Positions 3,242-33,781 are shown, counted from the stretch's first letter. The stretch: 42,509 bases of DNA from a virus (IMGVR_UViG_3300045988_081127:1-42509); one strand, 5' to 3'. A program made the numbers and translations. Notes: generated by a model from the letters alone, not told the origin.

Positions 3242-3853
3242 ATGTTTGTTGACATGAAAAAAGACCCTGACGCGCCGAAGGCCACGGCGCTTGACTTGCG
3301 CGAAGCCGTGCGCCAAGCGGCTGAGGCCGTCGAAGTCGACCCGGAAACTGGTGAGATTACGGGACTCGACAAGCTGCGAGAGGCGGAGGGAAAGGAGGCC
3401 GACAAGGTAGCGGCGCTTGCCCGCGTGGTGCGCTCCGTGCGCCGTGAGGCCGCCGCTGTCTCCGAGCACATTGAGGCCGAGAAGGCGATTTTGAAGCGAC
3501 TGGAGACGAAGGCCGACAAGCTATCTGACTTCTTGGCGCAGTTCATGCTGAGCGGCAAAATCAATCGGATAACAGACGTTGATATCGAGGTCAAAGCCCT
3601 CGCCGGTCGGGAGTCCGTGGCCGTGCTGGATATTGAGGCCGTCCCCTCGGACTTCGTCAAAGTGAATGCGATTAAGTGCCCGCCGACTCTTTCCTACACG
3701 GATGCGCGGCGTCTTGCTAGGACGATGGGCGCGGGTGCCGAGGTCGTGCGCACGGTTGACAAGATTGCGGTCATGAACGAATGGAAGCTAGGCAAGAACA
3801 CGATCCCCGGCACAGTGATTTTCCGCACGCCGGGCCTCAAGATTTCTGCGTGA
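3242..3853 (+). CDS. Gp157-like / coiled-coil recombination-associated protein
   Basis: The track ORF 3020-3853 is trimmed to ATG 3242 (GAGGAG SD; the extension overlaps ssb). Coiled-coil N-half, with a C-half resembling the Siphovirus Gp157 family. Confidence 0.55.
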   Translation: MFVDMKKDPDAPKATALDLREAVRQAAEAVEVDPETGEITGLDKLREAEGKEADKVAALARVVRSVRREAAAVSEHIEAEKAILKRLETKADKLSDFLAQFMLSGKINRITDVDIEVKALAGRESVAVLDIEAVPSDFVKVNAIKCPPTLSYTDARRLARTMGAGAEVVRTVDKIAVMNEWKLGKNTIPGTVIFRTPGLKISA

Positions 3854-4488: not shown

Positions 4489-4854
4489 ATGGCGACCAAA
4501 ATCGCAAAATTCAAACATCTGACGGACGCCCAGTGCGTCCAGTTCGAAAATTGGGGAGCCGTCACATGGCACGTGTTTGCGTCTGAAGAAGACGCAAACC
4601 AGTGGAAGCATCTTATGCATTTAGGGGATGCCGAGTTGTGTGGTGTTAATTCTGATATGTTCTTTGCGGCGAGGGGTGTAGCAGTGATTTACTCCCACGG
4701 AACATCTGCCCTCGTGAAACTGCGCGGCGAAGAGGACTTGGCGCAAACTTGGCTGGACTGCGCTGACCTAGAAGACGCCGAGACGCGTGTCCTCAGGCGC
4801 ATCGACGAGCTTCGTGAGTGCAAAGACTTTTGCGAAGGGGATGAATATGATTGA
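4489..4854 (+). CDS. Hypothetical protein (121 aa)
   Basis: GGAGG SD before ATG 4489. Confidence 0.6.
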   Translation: MATKIAKFKHLTDAQCVQFENWGAVTWHVFASEEDANQWKHLMHLGDAELCGVNSDMFFAARGVAVIYSHGTSALVKLRGEEDLAQTWLDCADLEDAETRVLRRIDELRECKDFCEGDEYD

Positions 4855-22706: not shown

Positions 22707-24209
22707 CTATAACACTGCCGTTACCGGTAGAGAAATGCGTTGGATTCCGGAGCCGTACGCATAATACAGTTGAGAGATCGGAGCGCCGCGCTGAGCGCGA
22801 ACGGAGGCGCCCGGGTCGAGCACCTGCAAAAAATATCCCTTGCTTTGCAGTTCACGCGGGGCCTCTTCGTTGCCCGTTTCCTGCATGATCTGCGCTTTCT
22901 GACTGTCGCTCAGGCTAATGCCCGCGTCGATGACGCCCGCATTCAGCGCCTGCGTGATCGGGTCTTGGCACCATGATTTAAGCATTGTGAAGCCCGTCGC
23001 ATTGTAGGGCGCACGGTTGACCGTAGCGAAGCCCTTCATAATCGAGGTCTGCAATTTGGAGCGAAGCCAAATCGAGCCAATCAGCGTGTCATAAAAACCA
23101 TACATCGCCGGGTTGCAAAGGGCGCCGCGGTTCGTGAACTGGAACTGATCATTACGCGTGGCGAACTGCCCGATGTAGGAAACGGCGAGCGCGTCAAGCG
23201 CATGGGCTTCCTGCTCGGTCGTCACCGTCGGCGTCAGGCCGCTAGCCGTCTTGCCAAAGATGACCTTCATGCCCTGCGTCGCATCCCACTTGATCGTAGC
23301 AGGGTAGGCCACGGCAAAAGCCGCCGTAACGTAGTCCTGAGCGTAGATCGGGAAGGTGCAGTTATAGCGATCCTTCAGTGCGTAGGCTACAGTCGATTCC
23401 TGCGTCAGCGTGCTGGTCATCTTCGTGTCACTCGACCAAAAGACATAAACAAAGTCGTCTTCGATATCGGCCCATGCGGCATAGGCTTCGGCCTCAGCCT
23501 TTTCAGTGACTTCCCACAAGGTCGTAAACTGCGCCCAGTTGGATGTAACGGAGCGGACGGCGTCGAGCGTCGCCGCTTCGGTCTGAGCCGTGGCGCCCTG
23601 AGAAAGGACGGCGCCCGCGGCCTGCGTCAGGTTGAGCTTTGCAGAGAGGTCCGTACCACCTTCACCCGCCGAGGCATACCCCACGGTAGACGTGGCGCCC
23701 TTCGTCGTCGATGTGAACGTAAATGTCTGCGTGTTCGAATCGTAAGAGCCGGTGCAACCGGTCAGGGCCGTCGCAATCTTCGAAGCAACATCCGAGAGAG
23801 ACGTGGCCTCCGAGAGGTCAACTGTTGCGGCGGTCTTTTCTGCGCCGTCAATCGTGAGCTTCATGGCGCCGTCTTTGATGGCCTTGAATGCGGCCAAGTC
23901 GGCAGATACCCGGGCACCACGAATCCACGCGGCGCAATCTTCACTGATGCGGCGACCGATCACGAGCGCAGTCGGTGCCTTCTGCTGATTCGTCAGGCCC
24001 GTGAAATACTGCTGAGAAAAGCGAGCTTCGTCGGAGTCCGGGCCGAAGAAATCGGACACGGCGGAAGCCGAGGCGAAGGCGACGGCCGGGGAACCGGTCG
24101 GCAGCAGTGCGCTCTTCGTGAGCAACATGCCGTTCGTTTCAAGATCGGAAGCGCCCGCGCTGATGGTGTGCGGCGTGATCGCGACAAGATAACCAGCTGG
24201 AATTGACAT
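22707..24209 (-). CDS. Tail sheath protein
   Basis: 500 aa. First gene of a sheath-tube-chaperone-tape measure order. Confidence 0.7.
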   Translation of the reverse strand: MSIPAGYLVAITPHTISAGASDLETNGMLLTKSALLPTGSPAVAFASASAVSDFFGPDSDEARFSQQYFTGLTNQQKAPTALVIGRRISEDCAAWIRGARVSADLAAFKAIKDGAMKLTIDGAEKTAATVDLSEATSLSDVASKIATALTGCTGSYDSNTQTFTFTSTTKGATSTVGYASAGEGGTDLSAKLNLTQAAGAVLSQGATAQTEAATLDAVRSVTSNWAQFTTLWEVTEKAEAEAYAAWADIEDDFVYVFWSSDTKMTSTLTQESTVAYALKDRYNCTFPIYAQDYVTAAFAVAYPATIKWDATQGMKVIFGKTASGLTPTVTTEQEAHALDALAVSYIGQFATRNDQFQFTNRGALCNPAMYGFYDTLIGSIWLRSKLQTSIMKGFATVNRAPYNATGFTMLKSWCQDPITQALNAGVIDAGISLSDSQKAQIMQETGNEEAPRELQSKGYFLQVLDPGASVRAQRGAPISQLYYAYGSGIQRISLPVTAVL

Positions 24210-28197: not shown

Positions 28198-29364
28198 TTA
28201 TCGAATGAACTGCTTCAAAAAATCCTCGTCGCTCTTGGGCGCCGAATCCATTGCGCCGCTCGGGGCGGCGGTCTTGACCGACTGCAAAGCGGCGAAAACG
28301 TGCTTAGCCGCGCTTGCCGGGACGTTCTTGACGCCCATGGTCTTTACGGCATCAAGATAGATCGCGTCGGCGCTATCGTAGGCCATCGGGTCGACGTTGC
28401 CCAGCACGGACTTAACCTCGGTCGCCGCGCGGTACTGCGCAGACAACTGCCCGCGCACCGTCTTGGCAATCAAGGCCGCGTCCATGGCGCCGCCTTCGGG
28501 CTTGGGTTCGTCCTTGGGCTCGTCAGAGTCTTCGGCTTTGGCCTCGTCCTTGGGCTCGTCAGCGTCTTCGGCGCCTTCGGGCTTGGCAGGCTCTTCGTCT
28601 CGCGTGCCTTCCGTTTCCTGCACAGCCTCGTCGACCTTGCTTTCTTCGAACTTCGCGTGAGATTCAGCAAAAGCGCGCACAAGTGCGTCCTTCTGCTCGG
28701 GCGTCAGTTCAACGCCTGACTCGTCGATAGTCTTGCGTGCAAACTCCGTGAAGTCGTCACACGCCCCATCAACCTTTGTTTCTTCACTCATCGTGATTCC
28801 TCTCGGTTTTTCGTCTGAGACATAACAGTAGGGAGCTCTACCTTCGTGAACTAGTGCCACGTGATTGCAAGCGAGCTCGCGCATCACGAAGTCATAGGCA
28901 AGCCCGTCCGGAGTCTCCCCGGGCGTGAAATCGGGCTTATATCGGTATCCGCAACTGAGGTCACGCAGTGTGCCGTCCTCAATTGCCGAAATTGCTTTTT
29001 CATCCCATACGCTGAGCGCGTTGGTAATGTATGGCGGCTCCCACTTCGCGCTGGTGCCAACGGTGCCGACGCGTAATTCCTTGTTAGGGTGCTCGGCACT
29101 ATCAAACTTGTGTTCGATTAAAAGCGGCACGCCGTTGAATGTCGACAGTGCCGCCTTAAGCTCGTCAGGGTTACGCCATCCGTAATAAATCCGGTCAGGG
29201 TCTAACTGCCGCTCTTCCCAACCAGGAATCTCGCGCCCGTAGTAGGGCGCCACGTGGTCGCGGGTTAAATTCGATGTCTTGACCTGCAAAAAGCCGTTTT
29301 TGTCGCGCGTCCGCGCCGACTCCATCACAACCTTTTCATCAAGCGCTAAGAGTTCTTTTTCCAT
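28198..29364 (-). CDS. Prohead protease/scaffold-like protein
   Basis: N-domain resembles DUF2213-type head proteins. Central acidic repeats DADEPKDEAKAEDSDEPKDEPKPEG. Helical C-terminus. Confidence 0.55.
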   Translation of the reverse strand: MEKELLALDEKVVMESARTRDKNGFLQVKTSNLTRDHVAPYYGREIPGWEERQLDPDRIYYGWRNPDELKAALSTFNGVPLLIEHKFDSAEHPNKELRVGTVGTSAKWEPPYITNALSVWDEKAISAIEDGTLRDLSCGYRYKPDFTPGETPDGLAYDFVMRELACNHVALVHEGRAPYCYVSDEKPRGITMSEETKVDGACDDFTEFARKTIDESGVELTPEQKDALVRAFAESHAKFEESKVDEAVQETEGTRDEEPAKPEGAEDADEPKDEAKAEDSDEPKDEPKPEGGAMDAALIAKTVRGQLSAQYRAATEVKSVLGNVDPMAYDSADAIYLDAVKTMGVKNVPASAAKHVFAALQSVKTAAPSGAMDSAPKSDEDFLKQFIR

Positions 29365-31157
29365 AGCTTTCTACTCAGTAGTGGACGATACGTACACTGG
29401 CAGTTATGAACCACGGTATTATTAACAATGTACCAATTAACCGACGTTTGCAGGTTGTACACATGTCCAAAAAATTCACGGAATCGCACTTCGCTCACGC
29501 GGCTAAGGCCGTATCCGAAGGCAAGCGCCTCATTCAAATCGCAAAAGAGATCGGGTTTTCCGCCGACATCATCAGCAAGCACCTTCGGAAGCGAGGAATA
29601 GAAATCCCCGTTTACCGCCGCACGGGCGATCGCATCCAGCTGCCCGAGGATGAAATCATCACCATGTACCAAAGCGGACAATCCGAGCAGGCTATTGCCA
29701 AGCATTTCAACGTTTCCCGTCATGTCATCCGGCGAAGGCTCGAAAGAGCTGAGGTCAAAATGCGCGGGATTCAAGAAGCACAGCTTTTGCGTTTTGCTCA
29801 AGCTTCTGAAGAAGCTCGAAAAGCGATCACAAAGGCCGCCAATCTTGCCGTCACCGGAATTACTCACCCGCACGATGAACTCGTCCGATGGGCTCAATCC
29901 CGAGAGCAAACGGGCAAAGTCGGCCGCTTCGGCAAAGGAGAGGTCGAATTTGCCACATACCTGACTCAGCTCGGCATTGACTTCGTTCGTCAGAAGGCCG
30001 TAGACGTCTATAACGTCGACTTTGCCGTCGGACCCGTCGCCGTGGAATTGACCTGCGGAACCCTCAGATACCGAGGCGGGAACGCCGTCGAGAACAAGCG
30101 AATCAAAAAGCTCCTCGAATGTGGGTATAACCCGATCTGCGTTGAGTTCTCTGATGAGGGAGCAATCTGTCCGCTTTTTATGGATCAAATAATCTCCCTT
30201 GTCGAGAAGGCGCGCGGGCTTCCACCCTTTAAGCGTGAGTACTGGGTGATTCGGTGTCGCACTACACACTGTGCCGTCGTCCGTAATGAACTCGGCCAAT
30301 TTTCCCGTGTAGAGACGCCGATACAGCTTCATTGGGAATGGAAGATCGTTAAGCTTTGATTCCCCAACAAAACAGGCCGGCAATTCCCCGGGGAGGACGT
30401 AACGCCCAACATCGCGGTCGTAAAGTCCTTTTTTTAGGTCGAACTTTTTGCCGTCCATCGCCTTGTGAGTTTCGCGGCTCGTGTGTTTGCCGGGAACGTG
30501 AATCCATTCGCCCTGCTCTACGCCAACCTCAAGATCATTCGCGCGGCACAGGGCCTCAGTCGCCTTGTTGCACTGATCGCGGGCAATAAAGTCCGCGCGG
30601 CGCTGAGTGATGTCGTATCGCTTGGATAGTTCGGACTTAAGCCCCGCCACGTCTCGCCCGTCGGTCACGGCCCGCATTACTAGCCCTTCGACCTCTTGCA
30701 GGTATCGGGAACTGATGGACTTAATGAGCGACGTGTTGGCGTTCACAAGTGCGTCAAAAGCGTCTTGCGAAATCTGCCCCTTGTCAAAACGCAGGTCGAA
30801 CGCCTCAAACCCCGAAGCCCGTAGCGCTGAGTTCTGCGCCCGGTCGACGTGGTCGCGCGTCTTCCGCACGAACCAGTCCGCCGTGTCTTCGGCAAATTCC
30901 CGCGTGCTTTCCTCCCACTTCTTACGCATTCGATCAATGATCTTTTGCAAGCGCTCAGCGGGGGACTCACCCTTAGCGTCTTTCGCAATCTGAGGCTCGA
31001 CCTTGCGATATAGCCCCTCAAGCTCTTTGGCGACGTCTTGCGCCATCTGACGCACAAGCGCCCGCAGCTTCCCGGCGTACGCCTTCCGTAGCCCTGCATT
31101 AGGCCGCACGGCTCGTATGCGTACGTCAGTAGACTGCGCCCGCCTTGTCGATGTCAT
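29346..31157 (-). CDS. Head morphogenesis protein (Mu F / SPP1 gp7-like) interrupted by an intein
   Basis: N-extein residues 1-261 carry ...FIARDQCNKATEAL...WIHVPGKHTSRETHKAMDGKKF.... Hint blocks follow from C262. The C-extein is CQCTYRPL. Confidence 0.8.
   Translation of the reverse strand: MTSTRRAQSTDVRIRAVRPNAGLRKAYAGKLRALVRQMAQDVAKELEGLYRKVEPQIAKDAKGESPAERLQKIIDRMRKKWEESTREFAEDTADWFVRKTRDHVDRAQNSALRASGFEAFDLRFDKGQISQDAFDALVNANTSLIKSISSRYLQEVEGLVMRAVTDGRDVAGLKSELSKRYDITQRRADFIARDQCNKATEALCRANDLEVGVEQGEWIHVPGKHTSRETHKAMDGKKFDLKKGLYDRDVGRYVLPGELPACFVGESKLNDLPFPMKLYRRLYTGKLAEFITDDGTVCSATPNHPVLTLKGWKPARLLDKGDYLIHKKRTDCSLIRELNADRVIPTFEELFDSLVLDGVPASVSEGSAGQFHGDGSDGKVDVIDVYGLLTNEVNAELSQVCGKFDLSFAEAADFARLLSGLSPSDEFIVRVSNSGDGKIGGLCDRFSSFFRSLSKTQKLCFLNPAHFDLSSFEPSPDDMTGNVEMLGNSLLGLSALVHGDDFILGQLDAIARAAVNGDFYSSLPKVLADDVGGKPDLFCDLNEALAFGYGLSRVSEVRFREFFGHVYNLQTSVNWYIVNNTVVHNCQCTYRPLLSRKLWKKNS
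29403..30374 (-). mobile_element. Intein (324 aa, Cys1 ... His-Asn / Cys+1)
   Basis: CFVGESKL (block A), ATPNHPVLTLKGWKPARLLDKGDYL (block B), FFGHVYNLQTSVNWYIVNNTVVHN|C (blocks F/G). Codons checked against the DNA. Confidence 0.8.
29406..30359 (+). CDS. Antisense ORF inside the intein: HTH-HTH + Vsr/PD-(D/E)xK-like endonuclease candidate (alternative start 29463)
   Basis: LIQIAKEIGFSADIISKHLRKRGI and SEQAIAKHFNVSRHVIRRRLERA are HTH-like units. GEVEFATYLTQLGIDFVRQKAVDVYNVDFAVGPVAVELTCG...ENKRIKKLLECGY is a nuclease-like core. C-ending codon bias. No clear SD. Confidence 0.5.
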   Translation: MNHGIINNVPINRRLQVVHMSKKFTESHFAHAAKAVSEGKRLIQIAKEIGFSADIISKHLRKRGIEIPVYRRTGDRIQLPEDEIITMYQSGQSEQAIAKHFNVSRHVIRRRLERAEVKMRGIQEAQLLRFAQASEEARKAITKAANLAVTGITHPHDELVRWAQSREQTGKVGRFGKGEVEFATYLTQLGIDFVRQKAVDVYNVDFAVGPVAVELTCGTLRYRGGNAVENKRIKKLLECGYNPICVEFSDEGAICPLFMDQIISLVEKARGLPPFKREYWVIRCRTTHCAVVRNELGQFSRVETPIQLHWEWKIVKL

Positions 31158-32613
31158 CGCGCTCCTCCGTGGTCGTGCTGCTCATTTGGCCAAACGGGTC
31201 CTCAGGCGCCCCCGGGGCTTCACCCTCAAGGTCGCCATACGGATGGTCCTTGGCATTACTCAACGCCGCGCGGACTTCGTCCTCCGAGAGGACTCCACGG
31301 TCTAGATAGACGGCGGCCGTGTCGGCCATCATCTTCTTGACCTCTGCCGTCGTGCGCTCGTCATCTTCGTCCAGTGAGCAGAATTCGAAGCTAAGACTAG
31401 GATCAATATCGCCGAAAAGATTGATCTGCAAAATGCGCAGAATCGCCTCAAGCGGGCGCCGCAGTATCTTTTCCTGCCGCGTGGAGATTAAGTCGGCCTG
31501 CAACTTAATGTCGCTCTCGCCCGTGGCGTTAAAGCCCGACGGCGACAGGCCCAGCGTCTTCACTACACCGCTTTGGTTGACGGACACGACGAACTCAAGC
31601 GACTGGCGCACGATATCAGTCAGGCCGGTAATCGGCGTGTTGACCTGTACAAAGTCTTCTTTGTCCTTATCGAGAAGGCCAACGCCGCTATTGTCGCGGA
31701 ACTTCGCAAAGAACTTCACGCGGTCGCTCACCGGTTGCCACGACTTGCGGGCAAAAAGCTGAGCGCCCAAATCCGTTTTAATGAAGCTCGTCGAGAACTT
31801 TGTCAGAAGGGTATTAACCTCCTCGCGGTTCTTGCGGAAGTGCGTCACGTAGTCCGAAAGCAATTGAGCCTGAGCGATTCCGAAGAAGTTATAAGAGGGC
31901 TTAAGTAAGTCCGGCACCTCGTTTTCCACAAGGCGGATCAGGCGCGACGTATGCACCGCCGTTCCCATGATGTAAAACACCGCGGGTTTGTAAAAGTCTT
32001 CTTTCAACGGGTCAGACGCGTTAAAGCTCTGCGGCGTCGTAAAGATCGGATCAATGACGCGGAACGCGACGCGGTCTTTGAGCTCAGTCGAGCGCGCTGT
32101 CTTGTTAAGCACCTCGTCCGGCTTGGCGTGCCCCGTGTCGATAAACACGAAGGCGCCGCCCATCATGCCCATGGTCGTCAGCGCCTTATAAAGCGTATCG
32201 CGCAACCCGATGCGGTCAATCTCTTCCTCTAGTGCCTTCTTGCGCTTGTCATCATCACACTTGATTTCAATCCACGCCCGCAACATTTCATCGGTGCGGG
32301 TCTGAATGCACAGGCGAATGAGCGCGTCTTGCGAAAGCTGTTGCAAAACGCCGTAGCCCACAAAGCTGACAAGGCTTGAGATTGCTGACCATTCGAACTT
32401 AGGCACAATGCCGCCCGAAAAAGCCGCGTCCATAGCACCATCCAGCTTTTTATAGTGCGCTTTAGACCCTGCGAGAGATCGCGCGGGTTTGAGCAGTTCG
32501 CGAATGTCCTTCTCTTGCGGGATAGCGTCGACAACCGTCGCGGTGCCGTCGTAGTCGCCGGAGACCTCAAAGCCAGAGGCCGGGCGTTTCGTCTTCCGAG
32601 ATTTTGAAGCCAT
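31126..32613 (-). CDS. Portal protein
   Basis: 495 aa between the large terminase and the Mu F-like gene. Acidic C-tail. Confidence 0.75.
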   Translation of the reverse strand: MASKSRKTKRPASGFEVSGDYDGTATVVDAIPQEKDIRELLKPARSLAGSKAHYKKLDGAMDAAFSGGIVPKFEWSAISSLVSFVGYGVLQQLSQDALIRLCIQTRTDEMLRAWIEIKCDDDKRKKALEEEIDRIGLRDTLYKALTTMGMMGGAFVFIDTGHAKPDEVLNKTARSTELKDRVAFRVIDPIFTTPQSFNASDPLKEDFYKPAVFYIMGTAVHTSRLIRLVENEVPDLLKPSYNFFGIAQAQLLSDYVTHFRKNREEVNTLLTKFSTSFIKTDLGAQLFARKSWQPVSDRVKFFAKFRDNSGVGLLDKDKEDFVQVNTPITGLTDIVRQSLEFVVSVNQSGVVKTLGLSPSGFNATGESDIKLQADLISTRQEKILRRPLEAILRILQINLFGDIDPSLSFEFCSLDEDDERTTAEVKKMMADTAAVYLDRGVLSEDEVRAALSNAKDHPYGDLEGEAPGAPEDPFGQMSSTTTEERDDIDKAGAVY

Positions 32614-33781
32614 AACCTCGCGCCTTTATGTAGTCGGATAGGCTATACCTAAGTCCGTCAATTATATGATTGTTTTTGTCTAAGACGACCGGCAGTACCT
32701 CGCCAGTCAGTCTATCCGTTTTGTAAGCGTAAAGCCTGAACTCGTCCGCAGTATGCACGCACCGCGGGTCAATAATGACCTTGTCAAAGCTGCGGATAAA
32801 GTTAATGCCTTCCTCGATGCTCTCCGGCCATTTCTCGGCGCCCTCGATGTTGAACCCGTGGCGCTTCAGATAGCTGATAGTCTCAGGCCGAGCGCAGTCC
32901 GCCTTAATTGGCCATTTCGTCGACTCCGGCACCGAGCGATACAGCTGAGGCATTTCGTCGATTTCAACCCCGACGCCGTAAGCCTCATGGTCAATATACA
33001 GGCGGTTATCCAAGATAAAGCACCGAACCAATGTCGACGGGTCACGCGCAAAACCAAAGTCGGCGCCGAAAAACAGCCGGTCTGCCTGTTGCCAAAGATC
33101 GTCCGGGATCGTCTCAACGACGTACTTGCCGCGGAAAATCTGCGCCCCGCTGATGGTGAGCGGGAAGCCTTCCCAAATGTGCAAATACTTTTCGTAATCG
33201 TTCGCCTTGTCCCATTCCATCTGCTCGCGCAGAACTTCAGGGAAATACGGGTTGTCCGTGTAATTGACCTTGCGGACGTAGGCGCCCGGGGGCGGTGCCT
33301 CTAGAAAATCGTTCGTTGGGTCGTCGACCGTGAGCGGGTTGAACGTTAGCCACAACTCTGATCCCGGCTTACGGATGGTCGGAATCAGCACGTCCCACGA
33401 CTTACGCGAGACGGATGACGCCTCCTCAATCCAGCAGATATCAATGCCTTCCTTTGACCTAATCGAGTTCTCATTGCGCAACAGGCCGGAGAAGATAAAG
33501 CGGCTACCGGTGCGCCTATGCTCAATCTCCGACTCTTTGAAGTCGAAGCGGTCAAATAGGCCCATGCGCTCCGCTGTATCTTTCAGCGTCTGATACGACG
33601 AGTCGCGGATTGAGTTCTGCACCTCGCGACAACACAAAATGCGCACCCGACCGAAATCAGCCATGGCAATGAGCGCGCGTGCGACTGCCCAGCTCTTGCC
33701 ACTGCCTCGGCCTCCGTAAAAGACCTTGTATCTGTGCGGCCTGTACAGTTCTGCGAAAGGGGCGGCGCTTCCGGTTGTCAT
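32567..33781 (-). CDS. terL: Terminase large subunit (PBSX/XtmB-like)
   Basis: Walker A YGGRGSGKSWA, CWIEEAS Walker B-like motif, C-terminal nuclease half. Confidence 0.85.
   Translation of the reverse strand: MTTGSAAPFAELYRPHRYKVFYGGRGSGKSWAVARALIAMADFGRVRILCCREVQNSIRDSSYQTLKDTAERMGLFDRFDFKESEIEHRRTGSRFIFSGLLRNENSIRSKEGIDICWIEEASSVSRKSWDVLIPTIRKPGSELWLTFNPLTVDDPTNDFLEAPPPGAYVRKVNYTDNPYFPEVLREQMEWDKANDYEKYLHIWEGFPLTISGAQIFRGKYVVETIPDDLWQQADRLFFGADFGFARDPSTLVRCFILDNRLYIDHEAYGVGVEIDEMPQLYRSVPESTKWPIKADCARPETISYLKRHGFNIEGAEKWPESIEEGINFIRSFDKVIIDPRCVHTADEFRLYAYKTDRLTGEVLPVVLDKNNHIIDGLRYSLSDYIKARGYGFKISEDETPGLWL

Follow-up and report, generated by a model that had tools for sequence, protein, structure and literature searches.

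A stretch of viral DNA of 42,509 nucleotides (IMGVR_UViG_3300045988_081127; hereafter the window, meaning the whole stretch that was analysed) very probably carries a mobile intein, and the homing endonuclease of that intein is encoded by a gene of its own that runs codon-for-codon along the other strand within it. An earlier, sequence-only reading of this DNA had proposed two overlapping open reading frames, and both are present, one of 603 residues on the minus strand (29346..31157) and one of 317 residues on the plus strand (29406..30359). As that reading had it, the plus-strand ATG at 29406 is complementary to the intein's next-to-last codon, for His, and the frames are exactly codon-antiparallel, position 1 of the plus frame being position 3 of the sense frame, that is, the frame of the head gene and its intein.

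The head gene and its intein

The minus-strand ORF, whose coordinates include the stop codon, has the character of a gene for a Mu F-like head morphogenesis precursor. It matches Pfam Phage_Mu_F (4.1e-10) and, spanning the full length of the 603 residues, phrog_15127 ‘head protein’ (4.9e-93), with a further match to phrog_324. Directly upstream comes the portal gene (31126..32613), preceded by that for the large terminase (32567..33781); a DUF2213 gene follows downstream, and all of them share the strand of the head gene. When the intein is spliced out in silico, coverage of the Phage_Mu_F profile rises from positions 1-92 of 112 (40.8 bits) to 1-111 of 112 (47.3 bits, against a cut-off of 29.6 for PF04233), the C-extein extending the match to position 111. 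From this domain and the portal-adjacent head module we infer that the spliced product is a Mu F/SPP1 gp7-like head morphogenesis protein. The N-extein (residues 1-261; 30375..31157, minus strand) terminates in GELPA, and its variable sites number 13/8/97 at sense codon positions 1/2/3. The C-extein has 18 residues, CQCTYRPLLSRKLWKKNS (29349..29402, minus strand), the same or nearly the same as the C-terminus of the intein-less alleles described below. The GC content of the window's genome is 55%.

The intein spans 324 residues (262-585 of the head protein; 29403..30374, minus strand). It opens with Cys1 in CFVGES, carries block B as TPNHPVLT and block F as GHVYNLQT, and closes with VVHN before Cys+1; the Cys1, TPNH and VVHN-Cys+1 residues are invariant or nearly so among 22 homologues. 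Eight close relatives from the same IMG/VR sample, with 94-98% amino acid identity over the N-extein, have an allele of 279 residues, exactly what is left when 324 is taken from 603. Their junction reads GELP[AG] joined directly to CQCTYRP, so precisely the 324 residues are absent. Pfam Intein_splicing scores 27.6 bits on the intein, under its cut-off of 35.8 bits; a profile built from the intein homologues matches the Mtu RecA intein (3.5e-8), and a Foldseek search with the AF2 model returns inteins and Hedgehog Hint domains (2imz_A, prob 1.00, about 100 columns, rmsd 4.0). Because of the exact absence in relatives, the Mu F domain restored in silico and these matches in fold and sequence, we take the head gene to be interrupted by a class-1 Hint intein that would splice, and the earlier claim of an intein in a Mu F/SPP1 gp7-like head gene is borne out.

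In the AF2 model the intein termini have a pLDDT of 78-96. The Hint N-terminal lobe (intein residues 1-66, blocks A, N2, B and N4; 30177..30374, minus strand; pLDDT 78-96) aligns with Mtu RecA intein residues 56-95, and over this stretch the sense frame is conserved more than the plus frame in 90 of 90 loci. The C-terminal lobe (residues 288-324, blocks F and G and the terminal His-Asn; 29403..29513, minus strand) is predicted at pLDDT 86-96 with strands across 288-323. Between the lobes, the sense linker of residues 129-285 (29520..29990, minus strand) falls below a pLDDT of 50 and is probably an unstructured read-through. The 234-residue sense middle gave no Pfam match at E<=1, LAGLIDADG and HNH included, which agrees with the earlier statement that no endonuclease domain can be recognised there.

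The antisense gene

The antisense homing-endonuclease gene would occupy 29463..30359 on the plus strand, encoding 298 residues plus a stop codon. The longer version from the alternative upstream ATG at 29406 gives 317 residues; the functional start is more likely 29463 (M20), because the aligned Met begins 23 of the 24 database homologues, the exception beginning upstream, and because a Shine-Dalgarno-like core precedes that column. In the window this is GCAGGT (29450..29455, plus strand), 7 nt upstream of the ATG and antisense to the N-L-Q codons of block F, and the ATG itself is complementary to the His codon of that block. A 4-nt core precedes the start-codon column in 61 of 69 loci, mostly as GGAGG or CGAGG, and ATG stands in that column in 65 of 81 non-gap loci; the closest relatives of the window have the stronger GGAGG where it has GCAGGT. 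When 29000-30800 was scanned for sigma-70 promoters and terminators, no promoter turned up for the plus gene, a result of little weight because the sigma-70 consensus may not fit the host. Transcription of the plus gene would run head-on into the late operon.

Full-length homologues of the plus ORF number 24, at 35-96% identity, and a tblastn search with its translation matched 119 phage records. In the rows listed, the feature beneath the match is a gene for a head, MuF or minor-capsid protein, a structural protein or a hypothetical protein, and wherever orientation was checked (Aaphi23 and all 112 fetched loci) the match is antisense to a long ORF.

The AF2 model of the endonuclease has a pLDDT of 88.7; read in the sense frame, as residues 129-285, that DNA gives less than 50. 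Its first 95 residues (29463..29747) form two predicted helix-turn-helix units, with helices at 7-43 and 62-95; HTH_23 (26.6 bits) and HTH_7 (25.4 bits) exceed the Pfam cut-offs at residues 82-114 of the 317-residue ORF, and PDB profile matches in the helix-turn-helix region are to those domains of resolvases and transposases. Pfam finds only HTH families in the plus ORF and no nuclease family, so the nuclease assignment comes from structure and profile matches to 3r3p. The best Foldseek match in the PDB is 3r3p_B, the catalytic domain of I-Bth0305I (E 7.5e-4, prob 1.00, TMt 0.64), and a profile match to the same entry (5.7e-4) covers residues 160-241. The BFVD matches are phage proteins named Vsr or mismatch endonucleases, one of them 297 residues long and matched over its full length (E 3e-28). 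The putative Vsr-like, PD-(D/E)xK-fold core (residues 160-251; 29940..30215, plus strand) holds E160, Q177, K178, D186, E195 and R213, all invariant across homologues except K178, which is nearly so. A C-terminal beta-hairpin follows (residues 259-298, strands 259-274 and 280-297; 30237..30356, plus strand; pLDDT about 92). It lies antisense to Hint blocks A-B, and its conserved EYWVIRC mirrors the sense TPNHPV; in 90 of 90 loci it is the sense frame that is conserved more strongly.

The composite E,D,x,H,D motif is incomplete. E160 and D186 (aligned to D196 of I-Bth0305I) are invariant, the neighbouring Asp is not conserved, and the column aligned to the general base H213 of I-Bth0305I is variable, with R202 in the window. 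Judged on these alignments, the clade, which conserves Q177, K178, E195 and R213 instead, shares the fold of the EDxHD family without being a strict member of it. Catalysis may proceed by another mechanism, or the protein may be a DNA binder that does not cut both strands. With its homologues, its confident model, its match to I-Bth0305I and the shift in variable sites described below, the plus ORF is, as the sequence-only reading supposed, best regarded as a real gene for a helix-turn-helix and Vsr-like endonuclease, which would be expressed and would cleave DNA. None of the computational results that the sequence-only reading had named as refuting it was obtained: the sense middle has no LAGLIDADG or HNH match, the plus ORF has both homologues and a fold, and its frame is free of stops in close relatives.

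Probable mobility

The intein is polymorphic for presence and absence inside one metagenome. The presumed homing site has its 5′ half at 30375..30389 on the minus strand (GGGGAATTGCCGGCC, followed by TGCCAGTGTACG...), and all intein-less alleles of the population differ from the intein-carrying flank within 15 nt 5′ of the insertion point. At wobble sites the divergence of the intein middle is 5-8 times lower than that of the N-extein in three populations (in one group, 16 variable sites in 221 codons versus 147 in 264), a difference that could partly come from dual-coding constraint instead of recent transfer.

The following cycle is what we propose. Expression of the minus-strand operon of late structural genes would yield the 603-residue Mu F-like precursor, in which the Hint domain (residues 1-66, possibly to about 125, plus 288-324) would fold around an unstructured linker of about 160 residues. 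Class-1 splicing through Cys1, the terminal Asn and Cys+1 would then produce the 279-residue head protein with its P..CxC motif restored. On the other strand, the complement of the block-F Asn-Leu-Gln/Glu codons would serve as the Shine-Dalgarno sequence for ATG 29463, giving a 298-residue protein made of two DNA-binding helix-turn-helix units, a helical linker and the Vsr-like nuclease core. During co-infection this protein would cut intein-less alleles near the junction of GGGGAATTGCCGGCC and TGCCAGTG, and recombinational repair would then copy the intein and the endonuclease gene together.

It is unlikely, in our judgement, that the antisense gene is under selection in a domesticated role instead (binding or nicking DNA, e.g. 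as a regulator or a phage nuclease) within a vertically inherited intein. The general-base His of EDxHD enzymes is not conserved in the clade, as domestication would allow, but the rest of the core is kept. Ancient as it is, the unit is whole in almost every case across very diverse phages, which is unusual for a purely selfish element that is expected to cycle through decay; yet three decayed derivatives exist (L093, L137 and L138, the last two with a short linker and a truncated endonuclease), as a homing cycle predicts. Several VSR-like cases do look vertically inherited, according to a preprint on phage inteins (bioRxiv 10.1101/2025.01.02.630785), whereas here alleles with and without the intein co-occur among head genes 94-98% identical in one sample, the intein is far less diverged than the exteins in three populations, and the gene was never seen outside an intein in 112 loci.

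Selection on two frames

Both frames are open in 110 of the 112 loci, and the sense frame by itself in 111. The loci were assigned to phage or prophage contigs of Gammaproteobacteria, Actinobacteria, Chloroflexi, Bacteroidales, Firmicutes and CPR, and were found with an alignment-based scan of contigs; a single-protein scan of the same contigs gave no close relatives. In the one locus with an interrupted sense frame, the Aaphi23-like prophage L007, a single CAA>TAA change at residue 68 of the intein splits the head gene into two ORFs and is synonymous (TTG>TTA) in the endonuclease. Such a locus, and the short-linker L137 and L138, might be taken to show that the arrangement is in decay or in transition towards a split intein (‘fractured gene’) or a mini-intein, in keeping with the proposal of Dassa et al. 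2009 (PMC2677866) that endonuclease invasion of inteins led to split inteins. The sequence-only reading had likewise entertained an intermediate of this kind, an idea that the loci neither favour nor contradict; decay or transition in place of a stable architecture we regard as very improbable for this locus: intactness of both frames in 110 of 112 loci over many phyla looks like a long-lived stable state and not a transient one, the embedded translation signals and the constraint on synonymous sites indicate long co-adaptation, and the fractured genes of Dassa et al. have a free-standing endonuclease ORF between the split-intein halves, not nested in a contiguous intein ORF, and the parts of the broken gene retain their original orientation.

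How the frames stay open can be seen in their codons. Among 89 distinct loci spread over many phyla, TTA, CTA and TCA are entirely missing from the plus frame, where about 592 would be expected, and the sense frame contains one of them across the same stretch. At 35-45% GC, 10-23 antisense-stop codons would be expected per locus; at 66-72% GC the figure is 0-2. Each frame avoids these three codons, which holds the opposite frame open. The intein frame thus stays open because the endonuclease gene uses no TTA, CTA or TCA, as had been proposed for the intein across its antisense gene, and no stops were found in the plus frame of close relatives.

Variable sites at sense positions 1/2/3 in 13 groups of close relatives number 570/388/1478 in the N-extein and 559/179/359 in the intein middle (Fisher p = 7e-65). 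The wobble position flips to that of the plus frame in the intein middle of 11 of the 13 groups, the remaining two being a tie (28:28) and a group with a single variable site. Over endonuclease residues 5-159 (intein residues 146-300), identity to the window is 0.345 for the plus translation versus 0.213 for the sense translation, with plus the higher in 92 of 92 loci. It is hardly credible, therefore, that the plus ORF is a non-coding reflection, open by chance or codon bias, of a sense middle that is the true endonuclease or a mere spacer: a control antisense ORF of 334 residues in the same antiparallel register (23202..24206, plus strand) has no Pfam match, and high-GC relatives are expected to hold few antisense stops, but the wobble pattern and the conservation both favour the plus frame, the plus ORF has the HTH families, the confident model and the I-Bth0305I match where the sense middle has neither a Pfam match nor a pLDDT of 50, and the missing codons are missing from loci at 35-45% GC as well. 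Since the control ORF looks functionless, ORF length was rejected as evidence for the plus gene.

One segment of 12 nt (30036..30047) is constrained in both frames, reading TTC-CAC-GGC-GAC in the sense frame (F-H-G-D, intein residues 110-113) and GTC-GCC-GTG-GAA in the plus frame (V192-A-V-E195, in the putative nuclease core). In 93 distinct loci its plus codons are RTC (93/93), GCC (93/93), GTG (84/93) and GAA (90/93), while synonymous sites vary freely at the neighbouring conserved residues. F-H-G-D is kept in 23 of 25 sense homologues, including L137 and L138 with their decayed endonucleases. We rejected the idea that its conservation is an ascertainment artefact of word searches, as the loci were gathered with degenerate plus-frame patterns that allow all synonymous codons. 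At the other end of the gene, the C-terminal 56 endonuclease codons (residues 242-297) mirror the N-terminal blocks of the Hint domain. With the Shine-Dalgarno sequence and ATG drawn from block-F codons, 56 C-terminal codons dictated by the Hint domain and the shared 12-nt segment, which on the plus strand would specify the catalytic strand of the nuclease, we suggest, tentatively and aware that it could well prove wrong, that intein and antisense endonuclease are nested not by chance but as an ancient, obligately co-adapted dual-coding unit, and that the intein itself needs F-H-G-D. Perhaps F-H-G-D would form an extra hairpin of the splicing domain that makes up for the missing block-F Asp. 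If true, two folded modules would be read from opposite strands of one stretch of about 80 to 140 codons.

Relation to known systems

The arrangement had been thought undescribed, and that view has to be given up. Gosselin, Arsenault & Gogarten, in the preprint mentioned above, surveyed PhagesDB only and report an ‘anti-sense VSR-like HEN’ in full inteins of actinophages, an architecture they call rare. Their systems and ours have in common a contiguous intein, an antisense Vsr-like ORF, a 3R3P match and an in-frame middle without recognisable structure, and the host proteins of their non-canonical endonucleases include MuF-like minor capsid proteins, as here. In our tblastn search the DNA under the MuF-like minor capsid genes of Gordonia phages Fosterous, Vivi2, Affeca and Angelicage was matched (E 1e-16 to 7e-25), as was that under a hypothetical-protein gene of Malisha, within the same range. 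The window is best placed as a new member of the antisense Vsr-like inteins from outside the actinophage group. The window is not from an actinophage, its nearest named phages being those of Aggregatibacter, Vibrio and Klebsiella at 30-40% identity, and the unit is found here in more than 100 loci from many phyla. A further point of contrast is the overlap of the endonuclease ORF with Hint blocks A to N4 and block F. In this respect the original description of an intein whose whole interior is mirrored needs amending: the nested antisense gene stands, but it is not confined to a dispensable linker. Term searches of the preprint returned no ‘synonymous’ or ‘ribosom*’, and no start or Shine-Dalgarno sequence antisense to block F, no mirroring of the Hint domain over 56 codons and no 12-nt segment used on two strands. 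Codon-level selection and embedded translation signals therefore appear absent from its discussion, as far as those searches go.

Dassa et al. 2009 (PMC2677866) described fractured genes, in which a free-standing Vsr-like or GIY-YIG endonuclease gene stands between split-intein halves. They share with the window their occurrence in phage genes, an intein with a separately translated endonuclease, the Vsr-like family and overlapping coding regions, but there the overlaps are short (6-69 bp) and here the intein ORF is contiguous, the endonuclease antisense and the whole 897 nt overlapped. A fractured gene consists of two ORFs with half an intein each; the window has one ORF with an entire intein. 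I-Bth0305I (PDB 3r3p; Taylor et al. 2011, PMC3239194) resembles the window's protein in its N-terminal HTH/NUMOD-like repeats, its C-terminal Vsr-like domain and the aligned Glu and metal-binding Asp (E160, and D186 with D196). It differs in residing on the sense strand of a group I intron, not antisense in an intein, in its general base H213, which the window's clade does not conserve, and in lacking the additional C-terminal beta-hairpin that mirrors the Hint domain.

Endonucleases opposite inteins have also been reported from the LAGLIDADG family (Gorbalenya 1998; Gogarten et al. 2002, both as cited in bioRxiv 10.1101/2025.01.02.630785). The Synechocystis DnaX and Chloroflexus SpoVR-like inteins, as described there, share with the window an endonuclease opposite a contiguous intein and differ from it in the endonuclease family. 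Nuclear group I introns (e.g. PMC9548176) similarly combine a self-splicing element with an opposite-strand endonuclease gene; there the host element is RNA, so the sense frame need not stay open.

Implications for annotation and evolution

On this evidence antisense endonuclease genes in inteins are real, selected genes that standard phage annotation misses. The architecture reported from actinophages is also present in many other phyla, in phages as well as prophages, for the most part at a single MuF/minor capsid site. As a clean natural case, in bacteria and phages, of antisense genes that overlap over a long stretch, it has constraints that can be measured: three codons wholly avoided, translation signals inside a conserved protein block and synonymous sites that the opposite strand holds fixed. 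The case is relevant to the way endonucleases became associated with inteins, and with that to the ‘splicing first’ view and to the invasion model that Dassa et al. put forward. Protein engineers could take an interest in a splicing domain that tolerates an unstructured insert of about 160 residues, and in a compact predicted nuclease of helix-turn-helix and Vsr-like parts whose likely target is located by the insertion junction. Among the phage records we inspected, the antisense CDS is annotated only in Salmonella phage PK2, and the records of Aaphi23 and Snoke have just the head gene annotated across the endonuclease.

An intein in the head gene

The evidence gives good support for a contiguous intein whose reading frame stays open opposite a genuine antisense gene for a Vsr-like endonuclease. 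The host is a Mu F/SPP1 gp7-like head morphogenesis protein, encoded by a 603-aa ORF on the minus strand (29346..31157). The sequence-only reading had placed an intein in this gene, and the database matches agree. Phage_Mu_F (Pfam) matches aa 154-242, phrog_15127 ('head protein') covers the full length (4.9e-93) and the phrog_324 match stops exactly at aa 262. The intein spans aa 262-585 of the head protein (29403..30374, minus strand) and carries Hint motifs, namely Cys1, TPNHPVLT (block B), GHVYNLQT (block F), a terminal His-Asn and Cys+1. A profile built from homologues of the sense frame, i.e. that of the head protein and intein, matches the Mtu RecA intein at 3.5e-8, and an AlphaFold model of the sense translation resembles intein and Hedgehog Hint structures. 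With the intein removed in silico, the window protein matches Phage_Mu_F over 1-111/112 (47.3 bits), compared with 1-92/112 (40.8 bits) for the unspliced protein. The 234-aa sense middle of the intein has no Pfam match at E<=1 and its pLDDT is below 50 (intein aa 129-285), in line with the earlier description of a region that has only weak GDG-like motifs. Protein splicing, expression of the endonuclease and cleavage by it are inferred.

The neighbours of the head gene are all on the same strand, with portal and terminase genes on one side and a DUF2213 gene on the other. The start of this downstream gene (28198..29364) overlaps the head-protein gene by 19 nt on the same strand (29346..29364).

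The antisense endonuclease gene

A plus-strand ORF of 317 aa (29406..30359) is exactly codon-antiparallel to the head-protein frame, as first reported, and is a real gene. Pfam HTH_23 and HTH_7 match above their cut-offs. The protein database holds 24 full-length homologues with 35-96% identity, in which E160, Q177, D186, E195 and R213 do not vary and K178 hardly varies (residues are counted from the start at 29463, which gives 298 aa). The AlphaFold model computed from the homologue alignment has a mean pLDDT of 88.7; two HTH units are followed by a helical linker, an alpha/beta core and, at the C-terminus, a beta-hairpin. The closest PDB structure is the catalytic domain of I-Bth0305I, a Vsr-like homing endonuclease (3r3p: E 7.5e-4, probability 1.00). 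The family sequence profile also matches 3r3p, at 5.7e-4, ranked second after an HTH match, and the BFVD matches are phage proteins named Vsr or mismatch endonucleases. The proposal that this ORF encodes a Vsr-like nuclease has held up.

A tblastn search with the plus ORF matched 119 phage records at 25-40% identity, from phages whose hosts include Aggregatibacter, Vibrio, Klebsiella, Acinetobacter, Edwardsiella, Salmonella and Gordonia. Among the matches listed, the underlying feature is always a head, MuF, minor-capsid, structural or hypothetical protein gene, and wherever the strand was checked (Aaphi23 and all 112 fetched loci) the match lies antisense to a long ORF. In the GenBank records inspected, the antisense ORF is annotated only in Salmonella phage PK2 (PV446483.1, 1807-2616, minus strand), as a 269-aa 'hypothetical protein' within the head morphogenesis gene. 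The Escherichia phage Snoke record has the intein annotated but not the antisense gene.

The start of the gene appears to be embedded in block F. The Met matching window 29463 is the first residue in 23 of the 24 homologues, and of the 81 loci without a gap at the aligned start position, 65 have ATG there; this ATG is complementary to the His codon of block F. A Shine–Dalgarno-like core, mostly GGAGG or CGAGG, lies 5 to 18 nt upstream (mostly about -13 to -8) in 61/69 loci and is complementary to the Asn-Leu-Gln/Glu codons of block F (start region 29439..29465, plus strand). The window has a weaker version, GCAGGT (29450..29455). The conserved ATG and its upstream core support a start at 29463 over 29406. 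A scan of 29000-30800 gave no sigma-70-like promoter for the plus gene.

Selection on the two strands

Variable sites were counted by sense codon position (1/2/3) in 13 groups of close relatives. The counts are 570/388/1478 in the N-extein and 559/179/359 in the intein middle (Fisher p = 7e-65), therefore the wobble position in the intein middle is position 3 of the plus frame. The region that overlaps the Hint N-lobe has 131/38/157. In the window's own group the N-extein has 13/8/97 and the intein middle 18/7/6. Eleven groups show the flip; of the other two, one is tied (G7, 28:28) and one has a single variable site (G12).

Identity to the window over the same codons, taken from a codon alignment of 93 distinct loci, resolves this along the gene. 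Over endonuclease aa 5-159 it is 0.345 in the plus frame and 0.213 in the sense frame, with plus higher in 92/92 loci; over aa 160-241 the values are 0.410 and 0.317 (90/92). Over aa 242-297 the order is reversed (plus 0.323, sense 0.460; plus higher in 0/90), therefore the conserved EYWVIRC segment and the C-terminal hairpin of the endonuclease largely mirror Hint blocks A to N4, including TPNHPV.

Within the plus-dominated region a 12-nt segment (30036..30047) is near-fixed on both strands. It reads GTC-GCC-GTG-GAA in the plus frame and TTC-CAC-GGC-GAC in the sense frame. Across the 93 diverse loci the plus codons are RTC in 93/93, GCC in 93/93, GTG in 84/93 and GAA in 90/93, i.e. four codons in a row are near-fixed at synonymous sites, whereas the synonymous sites of the nearby invariant D186, Y183, N184 and Q177 are free to vary. 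In the plus frame the segment encodes V-A-V-E, the strand bearing the invariant E195. In the sense frame it encodes F-H-G-D (intein aa 110-113), in a region of predicted strands with intermediate pLDDT (about 70). F-H-G-D is kept in 23/25 sense homologues, including both with a decayed endonuclease (L137 and L138, described below). Most simply, F-H-G-D would be required by the intein, in which case the segment would be truly dual-coding.

Open frames and decay products

Of 112 related loci, 110 have the plus ORF and its codon-antiparallel minus frame both open over the full length of the match, with the remaining two minus frames closed. These loci come from viral contigs and from genome contigs assigned to Gammaproteobacteria, Actinobacteria, Chloroflexi, Bacteroidales, Firmicutes, CPR and others. 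TTA, CTA and TCA codons are absent from the plus frame of 89 distinct loci, against about 592 expected from their use in the adjacent N-extein (10-23 per locus in low-GC genomes); the sense frame of the same stretch contains one. We dropped ORF length as evidence, as the window has a further antisense ORF of 334 aa in the same register (23202..24206, plus strand). This control ORF lies inside a DUF3383 gene (22707..24209, minus strand) and has no Pfam match.

Three loci are decay products. L093 (2171-2815), an 85%-identical relative of the intact L095, is the only one of the 112 with the endonuclease frame interrupted and the intein frame open. L137 (231-1637) and L138 (36-776) are derivatives of the same intein with a short linker and a truncated endonuclease, from which the second HTH is missing, as are the nuclease core's first helix and strand; L137 has an additional internal stop. 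Both still have their Hint blocks and the sense motif FHGDGS intact. In an Aaphi23-like prophage (L007, GCA_021310225.1) a single C>T at 4706-4708 turns CAA into TAA at intein aa 68. The change is synonymous in the endonuclease (TTG>TTA) but divides the head gene into two called ORFs, which could reflect pseudogenisation, an error of sequencing or the beginnings of a split intein.

Intein-less alleles and signs of mobility

Natural alleles that lack the intein settle its boundaries, which were first read from motifs. Searching with the N-extein gave 18 loci. Eight are contigs from the same IMG/VR sample (3300045988) with N-exteins 94-98% identical to the window's, whose 279-aa product (603-324) reads GELP[AG]/CQCTYRP at the junction. 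Three others have the intein. Alleles with and without it coexist in one sample. Immediately 5' of the insertion point, within 15 nt (window 30375..30389), every intein-less allele departs from the flanks that carry the intein. The variants (L119-L133, junction at about locus position 3280) are GAACTTTGTGCG, GAGCTGCCCGGA, GTAGAACCTGGT, or one change in L124, where the junction is GGGGAATTGCCCGGC/TGTCAGTGC; L119 and L125 have divergent 5' flanks. These differences may represent cleavage-resistant target-site variants. Wobble divergence in the intein middle is low relative to the N-extein in three populations: 18/220 versus 92/260 (G1), 7/208 versus 59/225 (G2) and 16/221 versus 147/264 (G3). 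Together with the presence/absence alleles, these are signs of mobility.

Relation to known systems

The sequence-only reading knew of no description of this arrangement, but a recent preprint reports the same type from actinophages. Gosselin, Arsenault & Gogarten (bioRxiv 10.1101/2025.01.02.630785) describe 63 actinophage inteins with non-canonical endonucleases, including an 'anti-sense VSR-like HEN' in full inteins. Four types of host protein are listed, one of them minor capsid proteins. The in-frame middle is unstructured there, HHpred matches 3R3P, and earlier anti-sense LAGLIDADG cases are cited. The window is thus a non-actinophage case of a recently described intein type. Judging by term searches of the preprint, our apparent additions are how widely the arrangement is distributed, the proof at codon level that both strands are under selection, the placement of translation signals within block F, the finding that the gene overlaps the splicing domain, and the 12-nt segment under double constraint.

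Two further systems are comparable. In fractured genes (Dassa et al. 2009, PMC2677866) the host gene is in two ORFs with a free-standing endonuclease ORF between them, unlike the window. I-Bth0305I (Taylor et al. 2011, PMC3239194) matches the window's endonuclease in fold and architecture, but the general-base His of its composite catalytic motif, EDxHD, aligns to a variable column in the window's clade. We therefore call the enzyme Vsr-like in fold, and not a strict EDxHD member.

Of 55 diverse loci, most have Phage_Mu_F (36) or Phage_min_cap2 (5) exteins. A few sense homologues (P0034, P0035 and P0046) reside in UDG-like or methyltransferase proteins, therefore the intein is not restricted to MuF. 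Those in proteins with UDG-like domains (PF03167) are full-length homologues, and the one in a protein with methyltransferase domains (PF05711/PF13578) is partial, with 24% of the query covered.
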